A DNA stretch of 64,000 nucleotides, from IMG/VR virus record IMGVR_UViG_3300031088_000776, one strand, 5' to 3'. How positions within the stretch are numbered: the first letter of the stretch is position 1; each line of letters opens with the position of its first letter. The position numbers and the translations under genes were made by a program. Positions 1,722 to 63,028 of the stretch are shown here, piece by piece. Origin of the DNA: a virus. Its lineage: Duplodnaviria; Heunggongvirae; Uroviricota; Caudoviricetes. The notes below the pieces were generated by a model. It saw nothing but the letters and a program-made list of their open reading frames with translations. It did not search any database and had not been told where the DNA came from.

Positions 1722-1848
1722 TTAACGCTCAATACCATCTTAACAGTCAGTAGTTAAAGTCTAACAGCAGCTAAGTGAAAAGATGAACAAATACCCATCT
1801 GAATTTAGCTGCTGTTAGACTGTCTGGTGCCGCTGCTTAGAGCGTATT
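1722..1848 (+). repeat. family B repeat, copy B1 (candidate structured RNA)
   Basis: Core caacagtcag ... gactgtctggtgccgctg with an internal perfect 16-bp inverted repeat, gtctaacagcagctaa (1759-1774) and ttagctgctgttagac (1805-1820). Homologous to the copies at 16403 and 55636. Confidence 0.75.
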
Positions 1849-2999: not shown

Positions 3000-3392
3000 T
3001 TACAGATCCATTTCAGAATCAATAGTGTAGTAGACCTTCTTGATTCCTGCTTCTCGAAGTGAATTCTGGCATCGGTCGCAAGGCTTACTCATTACAGGGT
3101 CACCACACTTCGAAACGCGGGCCACATAGATAACAGCTCCATTAAGATCTGCGCCGCGGGACGCCTTGATAGCTGCTACTTCAGCATGGATTCCCGCTCC
3201 AGTCTTAGGATCAGTGATCTGACGAGGATTGTTAACTTTGTAATTAACTCCTTGAGAAATGACATTGCCATTCTTAACAATGATAGCGCCATGCTGATGG
3301 CGATACTTAGAAGTTTTTGCTAATTGTAAAGCACGGTCTAGTAGATCCTTAGTTCGCGCGGACTGCGGAGCTCGGAACTTCAAATTCGACAT
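3000..3392 (-). CDS. deoxycytidylate (dCMP) deaminase
   Basis: Carries the HAEVAAI and PCDRC zinc-binding motifs of the CMP/dCMP deaminase family. GAAAGG lies 11 nt upstream of the ATG that starts MSNLKF. The longer ORF reaching 3437 is possible. Confidence 0.85.
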   Translation of the reverse strand: MSNLKFRAPQSARTKDLLDRALQLAKTSKYRHQHGAIIVKNGNVISQGVNYKVNNPRQITDPKTGAGIHAEVAAIKASRGADLNGAVIYVARVSKCGDPVMSKPCDRCQNSLREAGIKKVYYTIDSEMDL

Positions 3393-3538
3393 GTGCTTTA
3401 AGCCTTTCAAAAAATCAATATGTAACTCATTAATCATACAAAAAATTCTTAAATATTCAAAATTGCGAAAAGCAGTATTGAAAATTTCATTAAAACTTTC
3501 AAAAAATAGTTATATTTGATATAGTTCTAACAAACAAT

Positions 3539-3610
3539 GCTTTTGTGGGCTATAGGTAGGCCAGTTGACTCTAAATCAACCGTATGCGAGTTCGATTCTC
3601 GTCAAAAGCA
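3539..3610 (+). tRNA. tRNA with anticodon CUA (amber suppressor, tRNA-Sup)
   Basis: Hand-folded cloverleaf. Acceptor stem GCTTTTG/CAAAAGC, U8, D-stem GGCT/GGCC with A14 and G18G19. Anticodon stem GTTGA/TCAAC around the loop C-T-CTA-A-A, with U33 and A37. 5-nt variable loop. T-stem GCGAG/CTCGT with a TTCGATT loop. Discriminator A. No encoded CCA. Confidence 0.85.
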
Positions 3611-3868
3611 CTTTAAAAACTTTTTAAATACACTCTAAAACGAAAGGTGATTCAAAAATGACCTAGGTACTTTTGACTCATAATTCACTTTATTTCAAGC
3701 GGGCTTGCTTACTGCATGCTCGCTTATTCAGCATGCTCTGTCGATTAAGAATATAAGATATGTGCGAATGCATAGTCAAAAAACATCGCGTAAAAAGACT
3801 TAAACATATAAACGCACATCTAACTATACCAGAAAACAATCTTAATCAATAGTACAGGAGTACTAATC

Positions 3869-7068: not shown

Positions 7069-7434
7069 CTATTCTTGCTTACCAACGAGATAGTCACCTG
7101 CAAATACACGAATAGTCTTGAAGTATCTTTTCATAGATTTCTCAATAGTATCCCCACCAACATTGTTAGAGGTATGCACAATGACTTCTTGAATATTTGG
7201 TGAGTTATCGAAAAAGCATAATTCTTCTATCTTGCTCAATACTGGAATAGTTGAATCTTTTTCTCCTTCAGGGGTTAATCCAAGATCATGATCAAACCAT
7301 AGTTGTTCAATGATAGTATTAGAATCAATAGAGTTGAGCCACTCTAGAGCTTCAGCGCTCGATCTCAGCACAATTGTGTCTTCCTTTTCGAATTTCTTCA
7401 GAAAACTTCTTTCATCGTCAATAAGAACAATCAT
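7069..7434 (-). CDS. CheY-like receiver (REC) domain protein, stand-alone
   Basis: MIVLIDDE (acidic pocket), WFDHDLG (candidate phospho-acceptor Asp), IVHTSN (Thr) and a later Lys follow the spacing of a REC domain. Confidence 0.4.
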   Translation of the reverse strand: MIVLIDDERSFLKKFEKEDTIVLRSSAEALEWLNSIDSNTIIEQLWFDHDLGLTPEGEKDSTIPVLSKIEELCFFDNSPNIQEVIVHTSNNVGGDTIEKSMKRYFKTIRVFAGDYLVGKQE

Positions 7435-15261: not shown

Positions 15262-15433
15262 TCTTAGAGTAGCGAAAACTGCGCTACTAAGACCACCTAG
15301 TTTGCCGTGATAGGCTCGGGTCTAACTAGGTGGTCTTTTCATGTTTAGATGCAGTTTTAACGGAAAATACTGTTTACTGTATGACTATACCCTAGACAGT
15401 AAAACCGATGCTACAGGACGCTTAGGCTCGACC
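15262..15433 (-). repeat. family A composite repeat, copy A2 (reverse orientation; acts as a + strand terminator)
   Basis: ctgcgctactaa, then gaccacctagtt [21-nt loop] aactaggtggtc, then tttt, followed by the reverse complement of the ttagggtatagtcatacag module. Confidence 0.8.
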
Positions 15434-15590: not shown

Positions 15591-16160
15591 TTAATCGTCT
15601 TTGTCAGGGTCGAATACCCGAGTGGTGACTTCAACATTATCTTCTTTTAGAACTCTTTTTAAGAATTGATCTATTTCTTCTATATGTTTAGTAATGTCTT
15701 CAAAAAATCCCTGTTCCCAGATAAACTCAACTTTATCTTTCGATGAAAATATTACGCTGGTTGAAATCCAAACATCGTCTGAAACGTTAATAGAACCTAT
15801 CTTACTCTCAAAGTAATCAATTGTTTCTTCTGTGACATCTTCCTTAAGAGTAATTTCAGTTGAAAGGCTCTTCAAGCTACCTGCAAAAGGTGAATAATCG
15901 TTAGAAACAAATACTTTTTCAGAACCTTCAAGAATATGGGAGACTAATCTATGTGTTCCATCAGCGACATGACCATCCTTTAAGATGATCGGCTCCCGAA
16001 AATAACCGACTCTTTTAAGTTCCCCTCGGAGTCTCTCAATAACTATAGAGTCATTCTTTAGCATGTACTCTATAACTCCGTTCCAATCATCGCATCCATA
16101 AAGATTTTCAAAATTGTTTAAAACATAGTCTATGCTCACTAAATCTTTATCTCTATCCAA
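15591..16160 (-). CDS. hypothetical protein, possible ParB/Srx-like domain
   Basis: ILKDGHVADGTHRLVS resembles the DGHHR motif of ParB-like nuclease domains. Confidence 0.3.
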   Translation of the reverse strand: MDRDKDLVSIDYVLNNFENLYGCDDWNGVIEYMLKNDSIVIERLRGELKRVGYFREPIILKDGHVADGTHRLVSHILEGSEKVFVSNDYSPFAGSLKSLSTEITLKEDVTEETIDYFESKIGSINVSDDVWISTSVIFSSKDKVEFIWEQGFFEDITKHIEEIDQFLKRVLKEDNVEVTTRVFDPDKDD

Positions 16161-16997
16161 AAAGACTCTCCTATCAAGCTATTTAACTCTAATATCCTAT
16201 CACATGAGCATCCATCTCCTCTAACACTTTAAGAGTTTTTGAATAGGGCTAAAAGTACAGTTTTCTGTTGCTAACTACCTTACCTACCATGGACATTAAC
16301 TTGAGGGGTATAGGGACCTGCTAAGTGAACAGTGCCACCATACCCTCACTTACTCAGACTCAACCCTCTCGACACATCGCCACTCTATCCCTAGTCACGG
16401 TGCTCGCTCAACATACACTCAACAGTCAGTAAACCCGGTTCTCTCAGCAGTATAGCGAAGAGGTGAACAAATACTCACGGAAAACTAGCTACTGCGAGAC
16501 TGTCTGGTGTCGCTGTTTAGCGTATATGACAAATCGACTATTGAGATTACTGATGTAGCTTGGTTTCTATAATTATATATTAGGCTGTTAGTCGAAGGAA
16601 CCTCTGAATAGTCATCTGACGTAATGTATTCTTCTCTAGTTTCAATGAGGCCTGACGAACTAGATATTTTTGTTTAATTGGGTTCTAGCTTCATTAGAAC
16701 TGACGCTAACTACCTTACCTACCATAGACTTTAGCTTGAGGTGTATACGCGTGCATAATCACCTGCTCCCACCGCTCACTCAAATTTACTAAAAAGTTAT
16801 AAAGATGGCCATAAGAAAGTTACTGGCAAAATTACAATCGCTGACAACACGTTATAGAAAAATAAAAAATTGCGTTAAAGCGAAGAGTTTGATAATGTTT
16901 GTGAGTGATGACCTATATCACGCAAATCTAGTTATCACTTGGTAAAAGTTTTTTGATAGGATAATCAAGTGTCACACTGCACCAACAAGGGGGAACA
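16161..16997. other. 837-bp ORF-free, C-rich structured region; candidate large ncRNA
   Basis: No ORF of 60 aa or more on either strand. It holds the B2 repeat (16403-16530), two copies of ctaactaccttacctaccat.gac (16271, 16706) and the hairpin gaggggtatagg/ccataccctc. Confidence 0.35.
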
Positions 16998-17285
16998 ATG
17001 ACTACTGCAACTATTAACAACGTTAAGTCCGGATCGACTCTATTCAATACTACGATTCCACAGGATCTAGTAATTGATGGCCCGCGACTTCTGAATAAAG
17101 ACCTATGCGAATACCGCTGCGGTCAAGCTTATGTTCGCTTTATCAGCCCTGATAGCTCACTAGAATTGCTTATGTGCGGAAGCCATGCTCGCCGTTCAAT
17201 TGCATCAATGATTGAAAAGAAATGGTTAATTGATGACCAGACACACTACCTTATGGAAGATAACCGCCATAAGGGAGAACTCTAA
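16998..17285 (+). CDS. hypothetical protein
   Basis: 95-aa ORF. Confidence 0.45.
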   Translation: MTTATINNVKSGSTLFNTTIPQDLVIDGPRLLNKDLCEYRCGQAYVRFISPDSSLELLMCGSHARRSIASMIEKKWLIDDQTHYLMEDNRHKGEL

Positions 17286-28575: not shown

Positions 28576-29409
28576 ATGAATAGAATTTATAGGAATCTTG
28601 AAGAAATTGCACCTCATTTAGTTTCAGAGTGGGATATAGAACGCAATGGGAATAATCTTTACACTCATTTTTGGAATACTCGAGAAGACCCACCCCACTG
28701 GAAATGCAAAAAAGACCACCGGTGGACTATGCGATGGGATGCTAGAGTTGATCAAGGGCAAAATTGCCCCTATTGCTCTGGTAGAAGAATTATAGTCGGG
28801 GAGAACGATCTTCAGACTCGATTTCCAGAGATTTCTAAAGATTGGTCATTCGAATTAAACGAGCGAACGCCTATTGATTATCACCCCTATTCCCATAACA
28901 GAGTTTGGTGGAATTGTTCTGAAAATATTCACAAACCCTATTCACAGTTAATCTCTAAAAGAACTGGTCGTGGTACAGGTTGCCCTGAATGCTCTAAAGG
29001 TAGGGGCTCATCTAAAGGTGAATTTGAAGTTGGCCAACTTCTTGAAAGCATGGGGCTAAATTTTATACAGAATTCTAGAAAGATTATTCCACCTATGGAA
29101 TTAGACTTTTATATTTCTTCTCTTAATATTGGGATTGAATACAATGGAGAGTGGATGCATTCTAATCAAGCCTTGAAGCCTGATTCAAAGGATTCAAGTT
29201 TTCGTGATTATCACCTTAGGAAAAAGCGGCTTGCTAATTCTGAGAGTATTGATTTAGTTTTTGTGTGGGAGCATGATTGGACTGTACATAGAGATATAGT
29301 AAAAGAAGCTTTAATAGTGTTTTTCAAAACTGGGAAAATTTCAAAAATTCTTTCTCGTTTAGAGTCTTTTAAAGATGTTGATAAGGATTGCTGTTTATCG
29401 CGAGTCTAG
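28576..29409 (+). CDS. zinc-ribbon repeats plus a Vsr/DUF559-like endonuclease domain (homing-endonuclease-like), paralog 1
   Basis: WKCKKDHRW..CPYCSG, WNCSENIH..CPECSKG, then ELDFYISSLNIGIEYNGEWMHS..DLVFVWEHDW, which resembles the Vsr FVDGCFWH core. Confidence 0.6.
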   Translation: MNRIYRNLEEIAPHLVSEWDIERNGNNLYTHFWNTREDPPHWKCKKDHRWTMRWDARVDQGQNCPYCSGRRIIVGENDLQTRFPEISKDWSFELNERTPIDYHPYSHNRVWWNCSENIHKPYSQLISKRTGRGTGCPECSKGRGSSKGEFEVGQLLESMGLNFIQNSRKIIPPMELDFYISSLNIGIEYNGEWMHSNQALKPDSKDSSFRDYHLRKKRLANSESIDLVFVWEHDWTVHRDIVKEALIVFFKTGKISKILSRLESFKDVDKDCCLSRV

Positions 29410-29435: not shown

Positions 29436-29582
29436 AAGTAAAAACTGCGCTACTAAGACCACCTAGTTTGCCGTGATAGGCTCGGGTCTAACTAGGTGGT
29501 CTTTTGCAGTATTTTCGCAGTTTTACAGTGAAATGCTGTCTACTGTATGACTATACCCTAAGCAGCATTTTTGATGCTATAG
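29436..29582 (-). repeat. family A composite repeat, copy A3 (reverse orientation; terminator-like on the + strand)
   Basis: aaaactgcgctactaa, hairpin core, tttt, then the reverse complement of the ttagggtatagtcatacagtagac module. Confidence 0.8.
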
Positions 29583-30909: not shown

Positions 30910-32049
30910 ATGAATACAGTGAACTTTAAAGGTAATAATTATGATACAGATAAAATCGCTCGACTTTATATTGAAGAAAATCTAACTCTTCAGGAAACCT
31001 TTGAAAAACTCAAAGATGAGATAGACTTAAATATTAAAGAGTTCAAAAGCTTAGTAAACAAGACTGGGCTTAAAAAGAGTGACTCTAATAGACGCGAGTC
31101 GCAGGGGATAAAGAATCATAGGATTACTCAAAGAATTCTTAAAATTATAGAATCTTCAGAAAAGAAACTTAACTCTTTTTCTAGTAAGACTGCTTATGCG
31201 AGATATCTCCACTCAGAGAATCCCGAGTATTCAGTTAGACAATTCGAGAAGAGGATTGTTATAGAAGATAAGAAAGATTTTGTAAGATTTTTTGAAGTTT
31301 ATCCAGAGTTGAAAGATTATTTATATGATAAAGACTCTTTAGATATAAACTCAATAAGTATCTCTAGTCATTTAATTGTTGATTGGATCTGCGATTTGTC
31401 TCATATCTATCAGAGGTCATTTCAGGAAATGAATAGAGTAAAGAAATATTGTTACTACTGTAGTAATCAAAAAGTTCTTAAAGGTTTTAATGATCTTAAA
31501 TCTCAGTATCCTTTGATTGCCCTTGATTATTCATTTAGCAATGATTTAAAAGCTGATGAGATTTATTGTAAGTCTAGCAGAATAGTTGAGTGGGTTTGCC
31601 ATAAATGTAGCCTTAAATGGTCTCAAGCTCTTTGCAATAGAACTTCTTATAGCGAATCAGAATGTTCTAATTGCACTGATCGTATTTCGAAGCATGAGTC
31701 GAGAGTTTTAGAATTTGTTAAGACTTTCTATACTGGAGAGATACTGAGAAATAAAATGCCTTTACGTGAGGGGTCATCAAGATTTCAGATAGACATTCTT
31801 TTACCCGAACTTAAACTTGGTTTTGAGGTTCAGGACTTCGCTACACACTCTAAGACTTCAGAAGATGAGGTTTCTAGATTTAAGGGTGTTACTGGGCTAA
31901 AGAAAGGTCCTAATTATCATGAGAATAAGCGGAGGCTTGCTAAAGAGCAATTAGATGTGACTTTGATAGATCTTTGGCAGGATGAGATTGAATCTGGAGA
32001 TTTTGAAGAAGTTATTTTAGAAGCTATTCGTGAAGTCAAGGGCGCTTAA
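30910..32049 (+). CDS. zinc-ribbon repeats plus a Vsr-like endonuclease-like domain, paralog 2 (divergent C-terminus)
   Basis: WICDLSH..CYYCSNQKVLKGFNDL and WVCHKCSLKW..CSNCTD, then QIDILLPELKLGFEVQD. Confidence 0.5.
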   Translation: MNTVNFKGNNYDTDKIARLYIEENLTLQETFEKLKDEIDLNIKEFKSLVNKTGLKKSDSNRRESQGIKNHRITQRILKIIESSEKKLNSFSSKTAYARYLHSENPEYSVRQFEKRIVIEDKKDFVRFFEVYPELKDYLYDKDSLDINSISISSHLIVDWICDLSHIYQRSFQEMNRVKKYCYYCSNQKVLKGFNDLKSQYPLIALDYSFSNDLKADEIYCKSSRIVEWVCHKCSLKWSQALCNRTSYSESECSNCTDRISKHESRVLEFVKTFYTGEILRNKMPLREGSSRFQIDILLPELKLGFEVQDFATHSKTSEDEVSRFKGVTGLKKGPNYHENKRRLAKEQLDVTLIDLWQDEIESGDFEEVILEAIREVKGA

Positions 32050-37159: not shown

Positions 37160-39499
37160 TTGTCTAAAAGAAGTAGAAGAAAAGAAGCAGAAGAAGAGTC
37201 ATTCATTGACTTCTTCTCAGATAAAGCTCTCGTAGTTGAAGAATATAAAGAAAAGAAAACTTTCAGCAAAAACCTTAAAGCAGTTGCTGGCTTTCTTTCA
37301 CTATCAGTAATTCTCGGTTTAATCGTGACTATATACCCTATCATGGGGTTAAGTGCAGCGGCTAAGGTTGCTGAACCAATTGCTAAATATTGGAAAGACC
37401 TACCTTCAGAACTTGGCGAGACTTCAATCGCTGAAAGAAACGTTCTTTATGATAAGAATGGTAATATATTTGCGGAGGTTTGGGCTGAAGACCGCGTTCA
37501 GCTAAACTCCTTAGATGAAATTAGCGATTATGCTAAAAATGGTCTTATTGCGACTGAAGATAAGAGGTTCTATGAGCATGCTGGAATTGACTTCATAGGT
37601 ACGGCTCGATCAGCAATTTCGGGCTCAGGTGGCGGTTCAGGCATCACTCAGCAGCTTATCAAAAACTTGCAATTCTATGATCAAGCAGGTAAGGAAAAGA
37701 AAGCTGATGCGATTGAGCATTCATTATCAAGAAAGCTACAAGAATTAAAATACTCTATGGAGTACGAGAAGAGTCATTCTAAAGATGAAATACTTCTTGA
37801 ATATTTCAATACAGTAGCTTTTGGTGGCCCTAATACATATTCTATTGAAGCCGCTTCCCAATACTTCTTCGGAAAATCTGCTAAAAAGTTAGACCTTGCT
37901 GAGGCTTCAGCTCTCATTGGCACGGCAAACAATCCAGTTCTATTTAACCTTAAGCATACTGACGATGATGCACGGTGGAAAGACAGGCAGAAAGCTGTTC
38001 TAGATCGGATGGTAGCTGAAGGGCACATTACATCTGAAGAAGCTAAAAAGGCTGCAAAACAAAAACTTAAAATAGTCTTAAAAAAGTCACGTGGTAATTG
38101 TACTTCAAGCGAATATCCTTTTTACTGTGAGTATGTTATTGATTATTTAACCGACTCTGAAAAACTTGGTGAAGCTGCTGAGGAACGCGCTGCAGTTATC
38201 GCTAAGGGCGGTCTTCACATTAAGACTCATATGGACCCCGCTGCAATGGATCAAATTGATAAGAAACTTGAAGCAGAATTTGGGAACAACAATAGAGTTG
38301 TAGCACCTGTCGCCTTAGTCGAAGCTGGAACAGGCGGAGTCACTGCATTTGGTGTTAATAGAGATTACGGTGAAGGAAAAGGTAAGACTGTAATCAATGT
38401 TGCTAATAATCCCGCAGCAACGGGTTCAGCATATAAGGTATTCACTCTAGCAGCTGCTTTAAATTCTGGAAGAACAGAGTCTAGCTTAACTTTTGATGCA
38501 CCGTGTGTTTTTGCTCCTCAGGGTTATGATTATCCTAATAGCGGTTTTAAGAACTCTCAAGGTTGCGGTAAGCAGGCCGGTGTTCTAAACTATCAGCAAG
38601 CAACGGCTTACTCTTCTAACACTTGGTATACTAAATTAGCCACACAAATTGGATTAGATAAAGTTTACGACATTAGTCGGCAGTTGAATCTTAATGTCCC
38701 TGAAAACCTAACTAATAGAAGTCTTTCATTTGTTCTAGGTCCTGTTGAGAACTCTCCTATTGACATGGCAGCGGCATATGCTACATTTACTAATAAGGGA
38801 GTCTTCTGTCCAGCAACGCCCATTGAAGAATACCATTATTCTGATGGATCAGTTCCTGCGGTACCAGATACATACAGACCTGAAGATGATTCTTGTAAGC
38901 GTGTAACTTCACCAGCTACAGCTAGTACTGTATTAAAGGCTATGCGAGCAAATACTTATGGCGATGGAATTCCTGGTGCTTTTGGTACTCAAGGTCGAAT
39001 TAGTGGTTATGACTCTGTAGGTAAGTCTGGTACTAACCAGAGATATAATTACACTCAGGGTCAAGTCTCCGCTGATTATGGATTCTTTATTGACATTTAC
39101 GATATGGATAAAGTAAATAGAGGGGTTTATCAGAATAGTTATTATAGAGGTCAATTATGGCCTTACAACTACTCCGCTAAAGCGACTTCTTCAATCTTTG
39201 GGTCAGTTTTGAAAATGGGTAAGAATAAGAGTCTAGATTTCAACAATAAAGACACTTCATTCACTCCAGTGGAAATTGAAAAGAGAGATTATTTTACGAT
39301 TCCTTCAGTTCTTGGTATGACTGCTGAACAAGCAATGGATGCTATGTCTTCTATTGGCATACCCGTCTACGTCAGTAAGGAAACTGTAAAGGCTGATGGA
39401 CAATTCCCTGTCGGGGTCATTGGTGAGCAATCAATTTCCCCAGGCGAGGAGTTACCAGTTGGCACTAAGAAAGAAATTGTTCTTTACATAACTGAATAG
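37160..39499 (+). CDS. class A penicillin-binding protein (GT51 transglycosylase plus transpeptidase) with a C-terminal PASTA domain
   Basis: N-terminal TM helix. GT51 motif IATEDKRFYEHAGIDF. Transpeptidase motifs GSAYK (SxxK), SSN (SxN) and KSG. The C-terminal segment IPSVLGMTAEQAMDAMSSIGIPVYV is PASTA-like. Confidence 0.8.
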   Translation: MSKRSRRKEAEEESFIDFFSDKALVVEEYKEKKTFSKNLKAVAGFLSLSVILGLIVTIYPIMGLSAAAKVAEPIAKYWKDLPSELGETSIAERNVLYDKNGNIFAEVWAEDRVQLNSLDEISDYAKNGLIATEDKRFYEHAGIDFIGTARSAISGSGGGSGITQQLIKNLQFYDQAGKEKKADAIEHSLSRKLQELKYSMEYEKSHSKDEILLEYFNTVAFGGPNTYSIEAASQYFFGKSAKKLDLAEASALIGTANNPVLFNLKHTDDDARWKDRQKAVLDRMVAEGHITSEEAKKAAKQKLKIVLKKSRGNCTSSEYPFYCEYVIDYLTDSEKLGEAAEERAAVIAKGGLHIKTHMDPAAMDQIDKKLEAEFGNNNRVVAPVALVEAGTGGVTAFGVNRDYGEGKGKTVINVANNPAATGSAYKVFTLAAALNSGRTESSLTFDAPCVFAPQGYDYPNSGFKNSQGCGKQAGVLNYQQATAYSSNTWYTKLATQIGLDKVYDISRQLNLNVPENLTNRSLSFVLGPVENSPIDMAAAYATFTNKGVFCPATPIEEYHYSDGSVPAVPDTYRPEDDSCKRVTSPATASTVLKAMRANTYGDGIPGAFGTQGRISGYDSVGKSGTNQRYNYTQGQVSADYGFFIDIYDMDKVNRGVYQNSYYRGQLWPYNYSAKATSSIFGSVLKMGKNKSLDFNNKDTSFTPVEIEKRDYFTIPSVLGMTAEQAMDAMSSIGIPVYVSKETVKADGQFPVGVIGEQSISPGEELPVGTKKEIVLYITE

Positions 39500-39511
39500 T
39501 CTTAAATATAG

Positions 39512-39590
39512 ACAGCGAGATACTGCAGTCAAACAAGCGTAGCCTTTAAAGAGGTTAGTTTATTGTTTGACTGCAGTATCGCTGTTTAAA
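39512..39590 (+). terminator. long hairpin terminator
   Basis: acagcgagatactgcagtcaaacaa ... ttgtttgactgcagtatcgctgt (stem of about 23 bp), then ttaaa. Confidence 0.65.
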
Positions 39591-39651
39591 CTGTAAAAAG
39601 TTGGTAAAATAAATAAAAGTAAAATAAACAATCTATGGAGGGATAAAGACT

Positions 39652-52491: not shown

Positions 52492-52640
52492 AGACAGTAT
52501 TTTCTTCCTTAGGGTATAGTCATACAGTAGACAGTATTTCACTGCAAAACTGCATAGAAACAGTAAAAGACCACCTAGTTTGCCGTGATATTCTCGGGTC
52601 TAACTAGGTGGTCTTAGTAGCGCAGTTTCTACTCGATCTA
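52470..52640 (+). repeat. family A composite repeat, copy A4 (loop inverted relative to A1-A3)
   Basis: ttagggtatagtcatacagtagacag ... gaccacctagtt tgccgtgatattctcgggtct aactaggtggtc ttagtagcgcagttt. Confidence 0.8.
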
Positions 52641-52724
52641 GAAAACAGCAAAATTATCAATCTAAAATAACTTTCAGTACAATCTTGATAAATACTATAT
52701 GATTACGAAAGAAAGTTTCAAATA

Positions 52725-53786
52725 ATGTCTAAGAAAGTCCTAAGGGGAGTCACAGATCTATCCTCACAAAAACCAGACGTAGCAAAAGATTGGGATTATT
52801 CTAAAAATTCTAAAACTCCAGGTGAAGTGTCTCAATACTCTAATAAGACAGCATGGTGGGTTTGCAATGAGCTTCACTCATGGGAGTCTGTTATTGCGAA
52901 TAGATCTAAAGGTTCGGGATGCCCCGAATGCGCTAAAACTACTCGCGGTGAAAATATTAGTAAAGCTAAAAATATTAGTAATAAGCCATTATATGGTCAT
53001 AAAGAGCTTAAGAAAGAATTCTGCATAGTTAATTCTTACAATCCATACATTAAAGGAAATTCATATCAATCAAAAGTTCTATGGATATGCTCGGAATGTT
53101 CAAAAAGTTGGGTTGCTAAGATTAGCAAAAGAATTAAAGGTAGTGGTTGCCCAAATTGCTGGAAGTTAAACAAAGGTAAAGAATATGTTAAATCAATAGT
53201 TAGATCTAAAGGTTCACTATTCTACACTAATCCAGAAGTTCAAGAATATTGGGACTACGAGAAGAATAAGTTACATAAAATTTATCCAGAAAAGTTTTCA
53301 GCAGGGTCTCACTCTTACGCCTATTGGTTTTGCCCAAAATGCAAGCATTCATGGAGGGCAATAATAAAAAGTGTCGCAATCAAGGGTTCAAGATGTTCTA
53401 AGTGCATGAGTAAAACATCTAAAGGGGAAGAAGAATTATTTAATTTCGTTAGAAGTCTTTATAAAGACGCAATCAAGAATGATAGGAAAATTGTCAATCC
53501 TAAAGAATTAGATATTTATATTCCTAGCAAGAAAGTAGCAATAGAGTACAACGGTGAATATTGGCACTCTAATGAAGTTATGTCTGTTAGAATAAACAGA
53601 ATTTCTGAAGAATATCACAGAGAGAAGATACAGATTTGTGAGGCATATGGAATTGATTTACTTTTTGTCTGGGAGGATGATTGGCTTAGGAATAAAGACA
53701 CAGTTAAAGAATTAATTATAAGATACTTTGATAATAGACAAAAGAACAGCATATTTAAAAGACTTATTTCTAATAGAGATCTATAG
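52725..53786 (+). CDS. zinc-ribbon repeats (at least five) plus a Vsr/DUF559-like endonuclease domain, paralog 3
   Basis: WWVCNELHSW..GSGCPECAK, WICSECSKSW..GSGCPNCWK and WFCPKCKHSW..GSRCSKCMSK. The C-terminus is ELDIYIPSKKVAIEYNGEYWHS..LLFVWEDDW. Confidence 0.6.
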   Translation: MSKKVLRGVTDLSSQKPDVAKDWDYSKNSKTPGEVSQYSNKTAWWVCNELHSWESVIANRSKGSGCPECAKTTRGENISKAKNISNKPLYGHKELKKEFCIVNSYNPYIKGNSYQSKVLWICSECSKSWVAKISKRIKGSGCPNCWKLNKGKEYVKSIVRSKGSLFYTNPEVQEYWDYEKNKLHKIYPEKFSAGSHSYAYWFCPKCKHSWRAIIKSVAIKGSRCSKCMSKTSKGEEELFNFVRSLYKDAIKNDRKIVNPKELDIYIPSKKVAIEYNGEYWHSNEVMSVRINRISEEYHREKIQICEAYGIDLLFVWEDDWLRNKDTVKELIIRYFDNRQKNSIFKRLISNRDL

Positions 53787-54000: not shown

Positions 54001-54026
54001 TAATTTTGCTTTTTTAGAATTCGAGT

Positions 54027-54067
54027 AAAAACAGCGCTACTAAGACTAAAAATACTTACTAAAAGAG
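54027..54067. repeat. right 41-bp terminal inverted repeat
   Basis: aaaaacagcgctactaagactaaaaatacttactaaaagag, the exact reverse complement of 52451-52491. Confidence 0.85.
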
Positions 54068-54117: not shown

Positions 54118-55608
54118 TTGCCAAGCAAAACAATAGAAAGAATCTGTTCTTTAGGTCATAAATATCCAAGTTATAAAAATATGAGATTAAGATGTCCCTA
54201 TTGTAACAATAAGAAACTTCTTAAAGGTTTTAATGACCTAAAGACTAAAAGACCAGACTTGGTTTTAGATTGGGGCAACAATAACAAAAAGAGTGTTAAG
54301 GATATAACTATAACATCAGATTATGAGGCCGAGTGGATTTGTCATAAATGCAAACATTGTTGGGTAACTGCTGTTCGCAATAGATCAAACAATAACAATT
54401 GCGTCTCCTGTGAAGACAAAAATTCAGGTAAAGAAAATAGTTTTCATTCTAATAGAGAAAATTTTAAGAAGCTATGGAGCGAGAAGTTAAATGGAGAGCT
54501 ACCTGTATATTTACCTAAATCCTCTTTAAGCATTTACTGGTTCACATGCGGTCAATTTGATCATGAATACCAAGCAACTGTGAAGTCTACTTTTAAAACA
54601 AAATTCAATTGCCAAGTCTGTTCTGGGAATGTTTTTAAAGTGGGGGTTAACGACGCTGAGAGTCTCTATCCTGAGTTAATTAGCAAATGGAGTTCAAGAA
54701 ATGACTTGAAACTTTCTGAAGTAAACCCAAAGTCAACTAAAGAGTATCTTTGGGTTTGTCAAGAGAACCATGAGTCTTTTAAAACTGTTCCAAGAGTGCT
54801 TTCTAAGCCTAATTGCAAGTATTGTCTAAAGAAGGATATAGAACTAGAGGATTCGATCTTATCTACGCATCCAGAATTAGCAAAGAATTGGTCTTCATTA
54901 AATTCTAAAAAATCTTCAGAAATTTCTTCAGGCTCAGGGTATACTGCAGTTTGGAATTGCACTGAGGAGGATCATTCGTTTAAGAGGATTGTCCATAGGT
55001 ATATCAGCAGTAACAACTCTTGCCCTATCTGTAAAGGACATAAACTTCTTAAAGGGTTTAACGATGTTTCTACTGTCTGGCCACAACTGAATGATTTACT
55101 TTCAGAAAGAAATGAGAATCAAAATATTCTTTCTGAAATAACTTTTAAGTTCTCTACCAAGCTTTACTGGACTTGTAAAAGGGGTCATGAAACTTATTGT
55201 TCAGCATATCAAAGAGCTAACTTTTCATGTGGTAAATGCACTAGCAGTAAGGGTGAAGACGAGTTAAATGACTTCGTTAACAGCCTTAAGTTAGATTCTA
55301 TTCAAGGCTGCAAAACCTTAATTAATCCTTTTGAAATAGATATCTATATTCCAAAATTGAATATTGCTTTAGAGTTTAATGGAGACTATTGGCATTCAGA
55401 TGAGATTGTTGCTGGTAAGAGTCGTTTTAAGACTGCTGAAGAATACCACTCATATAAAAAGCTTCTTTGTCGGGAAAAGAATATTGACCTGTACTTCATC
55501 TGGGAGAGCGATTGGATAGATAATCAAAGTGAAGTCAAAAGCTCTTTGAAAAGACTTCTCGAAGGAAATAAATCGGACCCTATTCTAGAAAAGTTATCGA
55601 ACTCTTAA
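54118..55608 (+). CDS. zinc-ribbon repeats (at least seven) plus a Vsr/DUF559-like endonuclease domain, paralog 4
   Basis: Multiple W.C..H/CxxC ribbons. The C-terminus is EIDIYIPKLNIALEFNGDYWHS..DLYFIWESDW. AAGGAG RBS plus TTG start. Confidence 0.6.
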   Translation: MPSKTIERICSLGHKYPSYKNMRLRCPYCNNKKLLKGFNDLKTKRPDLVLDWGNNNKKSVKDITITSDYEAEWICHKCKHCWVTAVRNRSNNNNCVSCEDKNSGKENSFHSNRENFKKLWSEKLNGELPVYLPKSSLSIYWFTCGQFDHEYQATVKSTFKTKFNCQVCSGNVFKVGVNDAESLYPELISKWSSRNDLKLSEVNPKSTKEYLWVCQENHESFKTVPRVLSKPNCKYCLKKDIELEDSILSTHPELAKNWSSLNSKKSSEISSGSGYTAVWNCTEEDHSFKRIVHRYISSNNSCPICKGHKLLKGFNDVSTVWPQLNDLLSERNENQNILSEITFKFSTKLYWTCKRGHETYCSAYQRANFSCGKCTSSKGEDELNDFVNSLKLDSIQGCKTLINPFEIDIYIPKLNIALEFNGDYWHSDEIVAGKSRFKTAEEYHSYKKLLCREKNIDLYFIWESDWIDNQSEVKSSLKRLLEGNKSDPILEKLSNS

Positions 55609-55635
55609 ATAGCGTTTAATATTGACTGAGAAATC

Positions 55636-55750
55636 ATGCTCAACAGTCAGTAAACCGGGTTCTCTCAGTAGCATAGCGAAGAGACGAACAAATACCAACC
55701 TAAAACTAGCTACTGCGAGACTGTCTGGTGCCGCTGTTTAGATCATATTA
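55636..55750 (+). repeat. family B repeat, copy B3
   Basis: caacagtcagtaaaccgggttctctcagtagcatagcgaag ... aaaactagctactgcgagactgtctggtgccgctgtttag. Confidence 0.75.
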
Positions 55751-55782
55751 AAAATTTCACTAAAGTCAACCTAAAAGATAAT

Positions 55783-55828
55783 AACCCGCGAAGCGCATTC
55801 TATGGAGGAGTATAGCGCTTCGCGGGTT
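55783..55828. terminator. bidirectional GC-rich terminator
   Basis: aacccgcgaagcgc ... gcgcttcgcgggtt, with an A/T run on both sides. Confidence 0.8.
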
Positions 55829-55856
55829 AAAGTTTATTTAATTTTATTTAAGAATT

Positions 55857-57062
55857 TTACTGTTCATTAAGATGAGCAATAATTCTATCAGCTTCAGAAT
55901 AAGTTAGATTCTTGCGGCTGTCAACTTCACGACCAAGGAAGTCAGAGAGCCATTTTAGTGCTCTTGATTTCTCCCAATTGTAAATTCCAATAAATTCAAG
56001 CCCTGCGAAGATTTCTCCACGCTGGTAGTTAGTCATATTGTAAACAGTTGAACCGCTATTAGCTTTAGAGGTCATTGAGTCTGATGATTCAGTAGTTTTA
56101 GTATCATTGTCAACACTTGTTGAAACACTTTCAGAATCTTTCGTAGAATCCTTAACTGAATCTTCACTCTTAGTGGAGTAGATACCTGACTTCAACGGCG
56201 CATTAAGAACATCAATGATTTCATATTTGTCTGTGCGGCCCTTCTGAGCATCACAGTCTGTAGGAATACTGACTACGTTCGCAGGATGAATCTTTAGCAA
56301 GAATACGTTTCCATCGCGAGAGTGACCCTGAGCAAAGTTGAGAGTCGAGAAGTGCAAGCCTGGTCCACACCCTTGAGCGGGATCTGCAGTAACGTCAGAA
56401 CGCTTCATGAAGACTGTAGTCCCTACCTCATTTGGAATTTGCGAATTAACGTAATCAGTAACTTCACCGTTCTTTAGGACTGAAGAGTTACCTGACCAAC
56501 CTGAGTAGTGAACACCATCTTTAATGACTGGGCATCCCTTGTAAGCTAGGAAGTAACCATCATCAGTAATCGTGAATCCACCGTGAGCGGCCTGCATAGA
56601 AGCTAACCATGAGTACAGTTGATCACGGACGAATGGGTCAGTGTTCTGCTGTAAGTTTTCAACAAACTTAGCGAATGATGACCAAATCTTCTCGTCTCGA
56701 GGTGAAGAGTCGCTCTTGAACATTCTCGTAATGTGTGCGGAAAGGTGCTCGTTTAACTTCTCTCCATTGTAATATACTGAAGCGTCTTTAGTAGTAAAGA
56801 TACCGTTAGTAGGAGACTTCAATGCTTTGCGAACTCGAGCCTTAGTGTCGATTAGCTCAATAATCTCAGTCGCAATTCTGCTTTCTTCCTCGGGGGATTC
56901 GGCCTTATTGTATTCAGAGAATAATTCGCGAGCGCTACTGAATCTTTCTGAACCTTCTGAAACAGAGGCCCAACGCTGAACATTGTCTTCATCTTTAAAG
57001 AGTAGCTTAAGGGTTTTCTTCCCTGAAGTGTCTTTAGTAAAATTTGCTGTAACGATTTCCAT
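55857..57062 (-). CDS. hypothetical protein (401 aa)
   Basis: ORF with a Ser/Thr/Asp-rich middle segment and no confident motif. Confidence 0.5.
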   Translation of the reverse strand: MEIVTANFTKDTSGKKTLKLLFKDEDNVQRWASVSEGSERFSSARELFSEYNKAESPEEESRIATEIIELIDTKARVRKALKSPTNGIFTTKDASVYYNGEKLNEHLSAHITRMFKSDSSPRDEKIWSSFAKFVENLQQNTDPFVRDQLYSWLASMQAAHGGFTITDDGYFLAYKGCPVIKDGVHYSGWSGNSSVLKNGEVTDYVNSQIPNEVGTTVFMKRSDVTADPAQGCGPGLHFSTLNFAQGHSRDGNVFLLKIHPANVVSIPTDCDAQKGRTDKYEIIDVLNAPLKSGIYSTKSEDSVKDSTKDSESVSTSVDNDTKTTESSDSMTSKANSGSTVYNMTNYQRGEIFAGLEFIGIYNWEKSRALKWLSDFLGREVDSRKNLTYSEADRIIAHLNEQ

Positions 57063-57111
57063 TATTTCACTACTTTCTTGTTTGTAAGCTTACTTTTCTA
57101 TTTTACCAAAT

Positions 57112-59511
57112 TTATGCGCTGATTGATTTGACTCGATCAATGTAAACTGCCCTCATGCTACGCTTCAGTTCTTCATCTTGAACGTTAAGAGACTCAATAG
57201 AAAAATTGTTGTGGACTAAGAACATAGCTTTATTGAGAAGATCTTTTGTCTTCTTTGGGGCCTTCGATGACTTCAGAGTGTCCTTAAGTCCTCTAAAATT
57301 GTCATTGGTTAGCATATGGTACAAAGTATAATCAATTTCTCCGCTGTAATAGAGTTTTCTAAAGTTAAGATCAGGTGTTGAAGCCTTCATTTTACCCATC
57401 TCTGTTGGGAATAATGCTTCTAATTCATTTAGCTCTAGGCTTCTCTTGTAGCTTGAGAAGTAGTAAGTCATGATTAACTTGAATAGATTCTCAGGGTCAT
57501 TTTCGATCAACTTTGAAATTGCTCGACGCATATTAGCTTCGGGCTTCACAAGGTTTTTCTTAGCATATTCAGTAAGATAAACTCCACGAGGTGGCATTGT
57601 AGTGAATACGCACTTTTTACCTTTTGACTCTAATTCTTGAAGGTGGCTAGTCTTAAAATCATTGTAGTCAACGAATAGAACACAATCGCTCTCGACATCA
57701 ATTTTCTCTGAATTGTCAGCTCCGTTTGCAGCGTGCTCAATCTTGCAATCGCTACTCCGATAAACAATAACAGAATCAATCTCATTTAGACTATAAGTTT
57801 TCTTGAAAGCTTTAATGCCAATACTGTCTTTAGGGGATAACCAGCCTTTAATCAATCCACTATCTGCGCTTACAGAATTAGAACCTCTTGACTTCTTATT
57901 TTCGCGCTTATACTTTCGAGCCTCAGCAAGAAGATCTAGCATCGAAATAAACTCAATCTCACAGTCAAAGAGAACTCCCTTTGTAGAAATCAACTTAGGC
58001 ACTTCAAAACCTTCTTCAAGAATAATGAAAATGCTCTTACGCTTATCACCGCGAGAAGCTAGGAAACCGCGGCGGTGCTCATGCCAACCCTTAATAGTTT
58101 CGCTGCTAGCACCTGTTACGAAGAAGACATTATCAAAATCAGAACTTTCACCGCTTCTCGTAATGTTTTCATGGACGACAGAGCTATAAAAATCTTTTGG
58201 CTCGTGAGCATCGAAATTCTTTTCGAATTCCTTTGGTGAGCACTTCTCGATGTTGCATGTGTCTGAATATTCATAATTAACTTTATCTGAATTATTATTA
58301 GGAGAATTATGGCGTCTTCTAGCCACAATTGCTTCACGAACCCCTTTAGAATCAACAAGATTTCTAATAGTGTTGTAAATGCTTAGAGACTCGATTTTTT
58401 CTTTGTATGACTCATCAAATTTCAATACTGAATGAACAGTTCCAGATTGCGCAACTCTTCCGAAGTAAGATACACACATGTTCATAGCCTTAAGAGCTCT
58501 CTTCTCAAGAGATGTATTCATAGAGTCTACCGCCTTCAAGCAGTCAAACTTAAACTCAGGACCATTAATATAATCGTGAATCTTTCTATTTAGCTCTTCA
58601 CTGCGATTATCATGAGTAACTTCATCACGCGACGAGCTAAAGTTTACTACACCAGGCTTCAACTCAAATAGGATATTAGGCTCATCATTGTAGTAGTAGT
58701 TCCGATACTGTGAACCCTGTGAATAAACCCAGCCTCCAAGCCATAAAGCGGGGTTCAAGCGACTAATGTTCAATTCTGAGTTCATAAAGACTCGACCGTA
58801 AGTCTTTTCACCAGTCTTCTCGTCTTCATCAAGTAGTATCTCACCGATAGTGATCCAGTCCTTGGAGGCCTCGAAGCTATCTTCACCGTTGATGACAATT
58901 TCAAGGTCAAGTGAGTACTTCTGATACTTTTTAACAAGCTTCAGGAATTCTGAAGTGTCATCCTCTTTTACGGGGATAGAGACTTCAGTACCAGTAGAGT
59001 CATTCGTGGGACGATTCTTATAGACTACTTTAAGTTTGTAGCCAGCACTAGTATTGCTAAGAATGACAAGATTGGCTAGGCCGTCTTTAATAGATCGAAT
59101 ACTGAATTCAGTAGTGTAAGAGAGAGGCGCCTTGATACCTAGACCGTGCGAACCGATCTGAGTCATATCATCACCCTTATCGCTAGCACCGTAGTATCGG
59201 CAGTACTTAGTGAGAGAATCATAGTCCATACCAACACCGAAGTCACGAGTGATAAAAGTTCCCTGAATAGAGTCAAACTCTACCTGAATAGGCTTAGCAT
59301 TAGGTACTCTTACTGATGCGTCAATAGCATTAGAGATAGTTTCTCGAACTGTAGCTTCTTTAGGGTTCTTGTAAAGAAGAGTTAATCGGTCGATAATGTG
59401 ATTACGAGATTCCGAAAGTACATCCATATCAAATTCTTCAACAGGTTCAATAAGAGACTCTACAGTCTCCTTAGAAATTGTTGAATTATTTGATGATTTA
59501 GACAAAGCCAT
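57112..59511 (-). CDS. GHKL-superfamily (Hsp90/MORC-like) ATPase domain protein, about 800 aa
   Basis: N-box TISNAIDAS, G1 ITRDFGVGMD and G2 GSHGLGIKAPLS. GGAGGAG RBS lies before the ATG at 59511, which starts MALSKSS. Confidence 0.55.
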   Translation of the reverse strand: MALSKSSNNSTISKETVESLIEPVEEFDMDVLSESRNHIIDRLTLLYKNPKEATVRETISNAIDASVRVPNAKPIQVEFDSIQGTFITRDFGVGMDYDSLTKYCRYYGASDKGDDMTQIGSHGLGIKAPLSYTTEFSIRSIKDGLANLVILSNTSAGYKLKVVYKNRPTNDSTGTEVSIPVKEDDTSEFLKLVKKYQKYSLDLEIVINGEDSFEASKDWITIGEILLDEDEKTGEKTYGRVFMNSELNISRLNPALWLGGWVYSQGSQYRNYYYNDEPNILFELKPGVVNFSSSRDEVTHDNRSEELNRKIHDYINGPEFKFDCLKAVDSMNTSLEKRALKAMNMCVSYFGRVAQSGTVHSVLKFDESYKEKIESLSIYNTIRNLVDSKGVREAIVARRRHNSPNNNSDKVNYEYSDTCNIEKCSPKEFEKNFDAHEPKDFYSSVVHENITRSGESSDFDNVFFVTGASSETIKGWHEHRRGFLASRGDKRKSIFIILEEGFEVPKLISTKGVLFDCEIEFISMLDLLAEARKYKRENKKSRGSNSVSADSGLIKGWLSPKDSIGIKAFKKTYSLNEIDSVIVYRSSDCKIEHAANGADNSEKIDVESDCVLFVDYNDFKTSHLQELESKGKKCVFTTMPPRGVYLTEYAKKNLVKPEANMRRAISKLIENDPENLFKLIMTYYFSSYKRSLELNELEALFPTEMGKMKASTPDLNFRKLYYSGEIDYTLYHMLTNDNFRGLKDTLKSSKAPKKTKDLLNKAMFLVHNNFSIESLNVQDEELKRSMRAVYIDRVKSISA

Positions 59512-59885
59512 TTGTTCTCCTCCAAGATAGTAAATGTTCTTAAACATCCTATATGAAGAATTTAAAAGTTGCAAATCATTAATCAGAACTCTGTAAAGAA
59601 GACATTCTTAATAGTTTTATCTTCTACGTATTGCCTTAAAGAGTAAAACGCGAGGTAAAGATCATCTAAACAGCAAAAACGCTATCAATTAAAATTCAGT
59701 ATTCAGTTGCTATAGAAACGAAGAACTGATTTTAGAAAACTTTTTAAAAATTTTTAGAATTTTCATATTCAGGCTGTATCTCAGATGGTATATTGATTTT
59801 GCTCAATTCGATATTATTCCAAATTTTTAGTGCGGTGGCTCGCAAGGTCGCTAAACAAAGACTGTTTTAGCATAAGGAGTTTGTC

Positions 59886-60479
59886 ATGAACACCTCTATC
59901 TTTTCCGAATACAGCGACCTATACATGCGCCCATTCGAGCGTAATAATGACGCTATAAGTATTGCCCATATTTTACTTGACGAGAGAACCTGGTCGGGTG
60001 GTTTCGCAGACTCTTCTCGAACTCCAACTTCAATTGAAGACGCACTCGAGTTAGTTGATACTAGAAATGAAAACTCCACTATTTTTACTATTCTAAAAGC
60101 TTCAAGTAACACTATTGTTGGAAGTACTGGAGTAACAATGTGGGATCTTGAACGTGAGACAGCAAAAATTGGAAGAACTCTCATCAACCCTGACTTCTGG
60201 GGTCAAGGTGTCAATCATGAAATGAAGCTAATGTTCTTAGATCAGTTATTCATAAATAGCATTGGAAGAGTTGAATGCGATGTAGCGCCAACAAATGTCA
60301 ATAGTATGAGATCTCTTGAAAGATTTGGATTCACTTTTGAGGGTGTAAAGCGCCGGGCAGTGCAAAGACTCGACGGCACTTGGCGCGACACTGCAATTTT
60401 CTCTATGACAATAGAAGAATGGCCCTACAAGCGTGAACCGATTGTTGAAAGCTTAAAGTCAAAAATGAAGTCTTCGTAA
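59886..60479 (+). CDS. GNAT family N-acetyltransferase
   Basis: FWGQGVNHE (motif A-like) and SMRSLERFGFTFEGV (motif B-like). Confidence 0.65.
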   Translation: MNTSIFSEYSDLYMRPFERNNDAISIAHILLDERTWSGGFADSSRTPTSIEDALELVDTRNENSTIFTILKASSNTIVGSTGVTMWDLERETAKIGRTLINPDFWGQGVNHEMKLMFLDQLFINSIGRVECDVAPTNVNSMRSLERFGFTFEGVKRRAVQRLDGTWRDTAIFSMTIEEWPYKREPIVESLKSKMKSS

Positions 60480-60502
60480 AATTTAAGAATAAAAATAAAA
60501 TA

Positions 60503-60550
60503 AGAGGCGGTAGGAAAATACTCATTTTATTTCCTACCGCCTCTGCTTTT
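60503..60550 (+). terminator. intrinsic terminator
   Basis: agaggcggtaggaaa ... tttcctaccgcctct, then gctttt. Confidence 0.8.
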
Positions 60551-60612
60551 AAAGCATTTAGCTTAGCATAATTGAATTAGAAAACAATTAAAGTTTCTCT
60601 AAAGGAGTAAAT

Positions 60613-61695: not shown

Positions 61696-61742
61696 TAGCG
61701 AACAAAAGTAACTCTCAAATAATTTAGGAAAATACTAGAAAA

Positions 61743-62825: not shown

Positions 62826-62990
62826 AAGGTTGAGCCTAAGCGGTCTATAGAGTCGAAAATACTGCTTAGGGTATAGTCATACAGTAGACAGCATTTTCCG
62901 TTAAAACTGTCATTTTACAGCAAAAGACCACCTAGTTTGCCGTGATAGGCTCGGGTCTAACTAGGTGGTCTTAGTAGCGCAGTTTTCGCT
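62826..62990 (+). repeat. family A composite repeat, copy A5 (loop inverted; terminator-like on the - strand)
   Basis: gagcctaagcggtctatagagtc ... ttagggtatagtcatacagtagacag ... gaccacctagtt tgccgtgataggctcgggtct aactaggtggtc ttagtagcgcagttttcgctac. Confidence 0.8.
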
Positions 62991-63028
62991 ACATTATAGA
63001 ATCAGTATTTTCAACTTCTATTCAGTCT

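Follow-up and report, generated by a model that had tools for sequence, protein, structure and literature searches.

A constrained family of intergenic palindromic repeats in a probable huge phage, with a possible role as cis-acting RNA hairpins

Three copies of an intergenic repeat, referred to here as family B, occur on the same strand of a 64,000-nt stretch of viral DNA (hereafter the window; positions 159,909-223,908 of the 697,643-bp metagenomic contig ENA ERZ27247443 k141_1324127). The analysis establishes the family, the positions of its copies, their hairpin potential and a strong sequence constraint in an orthologue. B is a well-defined and, to judge from the comparison of sequences, clearly constrained element; an RNA structure is not demonstrated. 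It appears to be a lineage-restricted, multi-copy imperfect palindrome of a probable huge phage. The preferred reading, to which a rough probability of 40% is given, is that B is a sense-transcribed 3'-UTR or intercistronic RNA hairpin with a role in processing or stability.

The non-coding elements of huge phages are almost unexplored, and the present genome has at least three conserved intergenic repeat families, at which assemblies of short reads also break. Should B turn out to function as RNA, the few structured RNAs known to be encoded by phages would gain a new family, and a handle on the organisation of gene expression or mRNA decay in a phage of 700 kb would be available. Should it instead be a module at the DNA level, the PeSL (promoter-early stem-loop) idea of repeat-mediated gene shuffling would extend beyond T4-type phages.

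The three copies and their surroundings

The full copies, all on the + strand, are located at 1722-1850 (B1), 16401-16532 (B2) and 55622-55753 (B3). An nhmmer profile of the three recovers 1726-1849 (E 5e-37), 16404-16529 (E 7e-41) and 55630-55750 (E 5e-39) on the + strand and nothing further below E 0.01 in the window. A covariance model built on the B alignment (R1) scores them at 136-148 bits (136.4, 144.8 and 148.5 for B1, B2 and B3, respectively), and scanning the window plus 10 kb of contig flank on each side (loci L001 and L003) with R1 revealed no additional copy. The repeat family itself is far beyond chance, and these scores bear out the three same-strand copies (at 1722, 16403 and 55636) that an earlier note on this DNA had listed. 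Over the 103-nt core, B1 is 72-75% identical to B2 and B3, which share 90% identity with each other. The homologous span begins at about CGCTCAA in B1 and B2, or CTCAACAG in B3, and reaches ...TTTAG(N)4-5TAT(T)A, which makes B about 105-125 nt long. The B1 core, from the CTTAACAG foot through CTGCTTAG, occupies 1739-1840 and is followed by ATTATTTTT; those of B2 and B3 lie at 16418-16520 and 55639-55741. The Logan contig L002 carries B1 unchanged.

Logan contigs assembled at k=31 from two samples end inside B3 or its orthologue, at points corresponding to 55713 and 55708 of the window, five bases apart. Since no 31-mer of B3 is repeated within the window, these ends suggest that additional copies with the same 3' block exist elsewhere in both genomes.

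Outside this lineage, B is without match in public phage, viral, metagenome or GTDB sequence. The pattern AACAGTCAGTA N55-80 GACTGTCTGGTG, searched exactly, has no occurrence in GTDB genomes, JGI metagenomes or IMG/VR, and the 19-nt pattern AGACTGTCTGGTGNCGCTG has none in IMG/VR. Seventeen metagenome matches to the latter were dismissed as chance: nhmmer aligns the pattern alone, and the covariance model finds nothing there. Comparison of B1 and B3 with GenBank phages by blastn gave no match. Rfam 15 at gathering thresholds identifies one tRNA in the whole window and nothing else. When Rfam was run copy by copy in E-value mode, the sole hits were sub-threshold microRNA-precursor hairpins (12-21 bits against cut-offs of 50-100), so that membership of a known RNA family was rejected; no Rfam ribozyme, riboswitch or sRNA family is matched by B. 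An attachment site derived from tRNA or tmRNA was likewise discarded, as ARAGORN and Rfam find only the tRNA at 3539-3611, and so was a hidden gene under an alternative code in the ORF-free region, TAG being an ordinary stop in the window.

The positions described in the earlier note (after kptA, inside the large ORF-free region and after the fourth of a set of paralogs) are correct for all three copies; its statement that each copy follows a + strand gene fails for B2, the preceding ORF (15591-16160) being on the - strand. B1 lies 141 nt past the stop of kptA/Tpt1 (1054-1581, +), with a convergent ORF beyond it (1872-2462, -), and its closing stem is followed by AUUAUUUUU. B2 occupies an 837-nt ORF-free stretch (16161-16997) between the divergent ORFs 15591-16160 (-) and 16998-17285 (+). 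It is bracketed by 48-nt direct repeats (16265-16312 and 16700-16747; 88% identical, 435 bp apart), which might be promoter or leader modules, and upstream of it, at a distance of 90 nt, is a repeated module found ahead of the next genes as well. Behind the repeat at 16265-16312 comes a GC-rich hairpin, GAGGGGTATAGG...CCATACCCTC.

B3 begins about 25 nt past the stop codon (55606-55608) of an endonuclease-like DUF4379 paralog (54118-55608), and its convergent neighbour is rIIB (55857-57062, -). Between the two, 40 nt downstream of B3 and ahead of rIIB, a bidirectional terminator-like hairpin that is not part of B spans 55782-55829, with 15-bp perfect arms in an inverted-repeat search. Its counterpart at 7100-7150 of a contig from a related genome (L006, see below) has compensatory changes in the stem (AACCCGCGAAGCGC versus AGCCCGCAAGGTGT, with their complements) and the same 13-nt loop, TCTATGGAGGAGT. 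Lying between a stop codon and a canonical terminator, B3 should belong to the mRNA of the DUF4379 paralog as part of its 3' UTR. Both B1 and B3 thus directly follow + strand genes at convergent junctions. The copies are spaced 14.7 and 39.2 kb apart. Ordinary short-loop terminator hairpins follow many genes in the window; at the B copies themselves a scan finds no intrinsic terminator, a U-rich run following B1 only, and no sigma-70-type promoter or intrinsic terminator is common to the copies.

Hairpin potential and sequence constraint

The hairpin potential of B is real: in folding models all copies are capable of a long irregular hairpin, with the poorest pairing in B2. The inner hairpin of B1 (1758-1821, +) has perfect arms at 1758-1774 and 1805-1821 that are 100% complementary in an inverted-repeat search and Watson-Crick at 17/17 pairs, without G.U. 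The inner stem of B1 is therefore perfect, as the earlier note had it, and 17 rather than 16 bp long. Its 30-nt loop contains a small apical hairpin, AGAUG/CAUCU. The outer stem that had been proposed, ACAGTC...GACTGT, is present and invariant in 3/3 copies, so that it carries no covariation information. It cannot coexist with the full inner stem: its 3' arm (GACTGT, 1818-1823) overlaps the inner 3' arm (1805-1820) by GAC, and with these bases common to the two arms both stems cannot form in full. The RNAalifold consensus is instead a rod of four helices, namely a foot pairing CUCAACAGU with GCUGUUUAG, a second helix of (A)ACCGGG with UCUGGU, the inner stem and the small apical hairpin. Here the partner of ACAGU is GCUGU, farther downstream, and not the outer stem first drawn.

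Two blocks stand out. The apical-loop decamer GAACAAATAC (1785-1794, 16465-16474 and 55686-55695, +) lies in an apical loop with 9/10 columns invariant. The most conserved block, GACTGTCTGGTG(C/T)CGCTG (1818-1835, 16498-16515 and 55719-55736, +), has three matches where 0 are expected, and is identical at the relative's locus on L006. Invariant columns make up 30/36 of the 3' half of B (83%) and 23/38 of the 5' half (60%). They amount to 46/66 among paired positions and 25/37 among unpaired ones, and this equal conservation suggests a constraint on sequence more than on pairing.

Compensatory base changes between the copies had been put forward as a sign of a conserved RNA structure. Of that proposal, the long hairpin in all copies and two compensatory pairs in the same register are retained; the claim of covariation is weak, as 73/500 shuffles of the 3' letters reach every observed covariation measure. 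B2 and B3 do not share one 5' arm as supposed: B3 reads TCTCAGTAGCA and not TCTCAGCAGTA, two positions being different (5' arms CAGCAGTA in B2 and CAGTAGCA in B3), and the 3' arms of the two are identical. The comparison of agcagC/Gctgct with agcagT/Actgc also falls, since B1 pairs column 51 with 88 and column 91 with 48; columns 51 and 91 face each other only in the register of B2, shifted by three bases. The exchange of aaca/tgtt for ctc/gag is right in part. Pair 43-96, in the register of B1, is compensatory (A-U in B1, C-G in B2 and B3), and pair 44-95 changes from A-U to a U.C mismatch. The second same-register compensatory pair of the rod, 48-91, forms as C-G in B1 and as U-A in B3, and is mismatched (C.A) in B2. 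A further one sits in the apical hairpin, which is broken in B3. In the consensus structure of the three full sequences, 3/33 pairs are changed on both sides.

The consensus rod has 89.9% of its cells paired; sliding the 3' partners by 1-3 columns lowers this to 25-46%. These slid controls show only that the three copies have a palindrome in common, which common descent already explains. With three sequences, the covariation of B is not beyond chance, and alignments of this size cannot separate selection on an RNA fold from inheritance of an ancestral palindrome. Two base pairs, three sequences and a comparison that was partly out of register do not establish a conserved RNA structure.

Folding energies give a similar picture. 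The z-scores against shuffled sequence are -7.4 for B1 (minimum free energy, MFE, -50 kcal/mol), -1.3 for B2 and -1.9 for B3, and only B1 folds better than shuffled sequence. The minimum-energy fold of B3 is the consensus rod (-29.0 kcal/mol for the consensus versus -30.0 for the MFE), whereas the MFE fold of B2 differs from it. As regards the strand, the consensus energy is -26.4 kcal/mol for the reverse and -25.1 kcal/mol for the forward strand. In the helix 33-38/103-108, 5/6 pairs are kept through G.U-type changes valid on the + strand only, and in B1 the second helix depends on G.U pairs for its survival, a point in favour of the + strand; the reverse-complement consensus preserves the apical hairpin better, and these hints cancel.

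Evidence that does support a function of B comes from a related genome. A search with the rIIB protein returned a single relative (P0002, Logan run SRR29026073), whose rIIB shares 70% amino-acid and 69% nucleotide identity with that of the window; an rIIB search of IMG/VR found no relative. Its 7.2-kb contig, L006, is collinear with 55708-62806 of the window at 69-79% nucleotide identity. It terminates within a B element at the same position downstream of rIIB, a fourth, partial copy. This copy (AGCTACTGCGAGACTGTCTGGTGCCGCTGT.TAGAT) is identical to B3 at 35/36 nt, against about 60% past the end of B and about 60-69% in its surroundings overall. A neutral repeat would diverge like its flanks, so that B, or at least its 3' half, is clearly under purifying selection and strong constraint. 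The stretch from rIIB to the ADP-ribosyltransferase gene is collinear in the two genomes, without rearrangement at B, and at the one orthologous site examined B is present in both. More distant phages that carry rIIB (P0003 and P0005) are without B.

Candidate functions

According to the preferred reading, B would do its work in cis, on the transcript that contains it. Sense transcription would place it at the end of the message of the upstream + strand gene, or between cistrons, and the RNA would fold into a long irregular hairpin that serves in processing or stabilises the 3' end. A protein or a nuclease would then contact GAACAAAUAC, the invariant apical loop, and GACUGUCUGGUGCCGCUG, the 3' block. 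Transcription, acting strand and role are alike inferred. Counted in favour are the common strand, with B1 and B3 directly after + strand genes; the place of B3 between stop and terminator and the AUUAUUUUU behind the closing stem of B1; the pairing of the rod, its two compensatory pairs and its + strand G.U-type pairs; the near-identity of the L006 copy next to an intergenic flank at about 60%; and the lack of a conserved ORF or a known RNA family. In addition, an inverted repeat of 17 bp around a 30-nt spacer would extrude poorly as a cruciform from duplex DNA, which favours a single-stranded form. Counted against it are the shuffle result, the equally good reverse-strand fold, the z-scores of B2 and B3 and the deviating MFE fold of B2, together with the position of B2 away from any + strand gene upstream, the equal conservation of stems and loops, and the want of a common promoter or terminator among the copies.

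Nearly as likely as the cis-acting RNA hairpin is a repeat that functions as DNA, whether a protein-binding site, a substrate for homologous recombination comparable to PeSL, or a selfish palindrome of the MITE or REP type. The paired changes would then come from template switching or arm-to-arm gene conversion and not from selection at the RNA level. Indeed, template switching during replication can create clustered paired changes and perfect arms in one step, without RNA-level selection, and the B1 arms, fully Watson-Crick and without G.U, are as it would yield them (PMC8794818). The equal folding of forward and reverse strands, a conservation beyond the needs of a hairpin and equal in stems and loops, and the breaking of short-read contigs from two samples within B all agree with this possibility, as does the occurrence in the genome of other intergenic repeat families, one with a loop inverted across its stem; such repeats drive module shuffling in T4-type phages (PMC2839356, PMC4122927). 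However, when the ends of the copies are read, terminal inverted repeats with a target-site duplication are not found. The foot CT(C/T)AACAG / CTG(T/C)TTAG acts as a terminal inverted repeat and ATCAT stands on either side of B3; B1 and B2 are without such a duplication, none is common to the copies, and the flanks are partly homologous between them. Moreover, a neutral selfish element should diverge like its flanks, and the presence/absence polymorphism and neutral divergence typical of a MITE are not seen: the orthologous site examined is occupied in both genomes at 35/36 identity, against about 60-69% around it. The two arms, unequal in their invariant columns (83% versus 60%), are unlike a symmetric dimer-binding palindrome. 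B is also without the terminator-plus-promoter make-up of PeSL, and the gene order shared with the relative between rIIB and the ADP-ribosyltransferase gene, undisturbed at B, also counts against this possibility.

It is rather improbable that each copy is a gene in its own right for a small RNA (about 100-125 nt) that acts in trans, is encoded in multiple copies and pairs with targets or binds protein through its apical loop or 3' block. The loop decamer invariant in all copies, the isolation of B2 in an ORF-free region downstream of a repeated module, the strong conservation of the family in the relative and the absence of any resemblance in Rfam are in its favour; yet the copies are not flanked by a common promoter or terminator, B3 closely follows a stop codon and lies upstream of the terminator of the same gene, complementary targets of the conserved blocks are absent elsewhere in the window, and the reverse consensus is as good as the forward one. 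The broader proposal that B represents a new, multi-copy family of structured non-coding RNAs in a lineage of phages of about 700 kb is doubtful too; there, a protein of the phage or its host would recognise GAACAAAUAC and the 3' block, or these would pair with targets, making B a phage-specific riboregulator or decoy and not a passive repeat. Two further ideas have very little probability. One frame is similar in three copies and could specify a small Cys-rich peptide, NKY....S(Y/C)C(E)TVWCRCL, if the TAG in B1 were read by the amber-suppressor-like tRNA at 3539-3611, whose CTA anticodon lies 1.7 kb away; in the S.C.TVWCRCL block 3/5 substitutions are synonymous changes at Cys third positions, a proportion that is not significant. 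Such a gene was rejected because B3 has ACG in place of the start codon, with an in-frame stop just upstream, B1 has its TAG in frame, the purine-rich stretch abuts the start codon without a spacer, and the local code is standard, TAG ending 8/52 long ORFs of the window. Just as slight is the chance that B marks the 3' end of a gene cassette as a recombination site similar to integron attC (VCR). Its core of about 103 nt and its imperfect-palindrome form resemble attC sites, which measure 57-141 nt, and Vibrio cholerae repeats, of roughly 124 nt; B1 and B3 follow genes in the same orientation; and the 5' foot, GCTCAAC or ACTCAAC in B2 and B3 and TCTTAAC in B1, fits RYYYAAC as (G/A)CTCAAC in the former two. 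The 3' foot does not comply, being GTTTAGA/GTTTAGC in B2 and B3 and GCTTAGA in B1, so that GTTRRRY fails in 3/3 and the invariant GTT is missing from B1. In attC cassette arrays the sites follow one another at distances of a few hundred bp up to about 1,500 bp, and an IntI integrase lies close by; copies at the spacing of B form no array, no integrase is found among the 40 window proteins scanned, and the attC identity was accordingly discarded.

Known systems offer partial parallels to B, those nearest to the preferred reading being the RNase III sites of T7 and the REP/ERIC-type palindromes of bacterial 3' UTRs. The RNase III hairpins of the T7 early genes (R0.3, R0.5, R1, R1.1 and R1.3) are, like B, related intergenic phage hairpins placed along the direction of transcription and interrupted by internal loops, and after cleavage they leave a 3' hairpin that stabilises the upstream message. 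They have no sequence similarity to B, whose rod is longer (about 105 nt) and whose apical loop is invariant; B2 is not downstream of a co-oriented gene, and cleavage of B is putative. The bacterial ERIC/IRU, REP/BIME, BOX and RUP repeats are also dispersed, multi-copy, intergenic imperfect palindromes that are probably transcribed, ERIC (about 127 nt) being similar to B in length, and effects on mRNA stability have been suggested for them. In contrast to B, which has three copies per 83 kb in a probable phage, they are chromosomal with tens to hundreds of copies; no sequence is common to them and B, and the orthologue of B is far more conserved than its flanks. Attachment sites of the attC type and Vibrio cholerae repeats share with B the form of imperfect palindromes of about 60-140 nt at gene 3' ends and the RYYYAAC-like 5' foot, and differ in the 3' core, the arrays and the integrase. 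PeSL cassettes, in which a stem-loop terminator is joined to a conserved early promoter (PMC4122927), are conserved repeated intergenic motifs of T4-type phages, whose genomes also have rIIA/rIIB and homing-endonuclease-like genes, and motifs of this type can be recombination points (PMC2839356, PMC4122927). A PeSL is a small composite of terminator and early promoter, whereas the B copies have neither a promoter-like site nor a U-tract terminator in common, for which reason B was rejected as a PeSL-type cassette; the layout is better fitted by a second repeat family of the window (15275-15416 and relatives).

Other repeats and the nature of the replicon

This second intergenic family, of about 150 nt, has copies at 308-454, 52508-52654 and 62865-63011 in one orientation and at 15275-15416 and 29441-29582 in the reverse one, with a fragment at 54021-54046. 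It consists of a 14-15-bp hairpin, AAGACCACCTAGTT...AACTAGGTGGTCTT, that has a U-tract to one side and is flanked by conserved modules, and by its sequence it looks like a PeSL-like terminator joined to a possible promoter. In the copy at 308-454 the 22-nt loop is inverted relative to its flanks in comparison with the copies at 52508 and 62865, which points to an inversion across the stem, a DNA-level event. The Logan contigs L002 and L006 both begin inside copies of this family.

A possible distant relative of B is located at 39493-39601 (+), with an R1 score of 18.6 bits (E 0.037 over 123 kb). Its hairpin, 39507-39588, has 18-bp perfect arms (39519-39536 and 39563-39580; about 23 bp with a bulge), a 26-nt loop and the foot ACAGCG/CGCTGTTTA, similar to the ACAG.../CGCTGTTTA foot of B. 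It lies without a U-tract between a PBP1A-like gene (37160-39499) and the next + strand gene. R1 has no match at E<=10 in 1.25 Mb of unrelated bacterial DNA, and the nhmmer profile of B does not find 39493-39601; this segment may be a distant member of the family.

The replicon is probably an uncultivated huge phage. The window (GC 38%) carries a range of phage-like genes, including adjacent rIIA and rIIB, a dNMP kinase, a TET-associated glycosyltransferase (TAGT), a PHA02142-type RNA ligase, Tpt1/KptA, dCMP deaminase, ribonucleotide reductase, an Alt-like ADP-ribosyltransferase, DnaB with its loader and a sliding clamp. The best GTDB matches of its RecA reach only 41-54% identity and are spread across Fusobacteriota, Acidobacteriota, Actinomycetota and Bacillota, which argues against a represented bacterial lineage, and rIIA is 25-27% identical to that of the nearest GenBank phages. 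Doubts on the phage identity arise from the PBP1A-like class A penicillin-binding protein with its PASTA domain and from a full type IV pilus gene set, found with an M50 protease in the 10 kb upstream of the window (L001); such genes would be unusual cargo for a phage.

Four DUF4379 paralogs (28576-29409, 30910-32049, 52725-53786 and 54118-55608) contain repeated treble-clef zinc fingers and a Vsr/DUF559-like endonuclease C-terminal region, and by these domains look like homing endonucleases. A profile search with the four returned unrelated bacterial and phage proteins only, a match on a 733-kb contig being set aside as bacterial and not related. For 54118-55608, a large protein search gave no close orthologue (best non-self match 34% identical), and the gene may be absent from the relative with the 70%-identical rIIB.

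The tRNA at 3539-3611 (+; 62.6 bits with the Rfam tRNA model) has the anticodon CTA, which would read amber UAG, and ARAGORN labels it 'Pyl' from the anticodon alone. The use of TAG as a stop points to a standard code in this region; the tRNA could serve stop-codon recoding elsewhere in the huge phage genome. A 150-nt direct repeat with 72% identity (2504-2653 and 3000-3149) has one copy within the dCMP-deaminase gene (3000-3437, -); the other lies in the spacer upstream, and this spacer copy may be a gene-fragment duplication.
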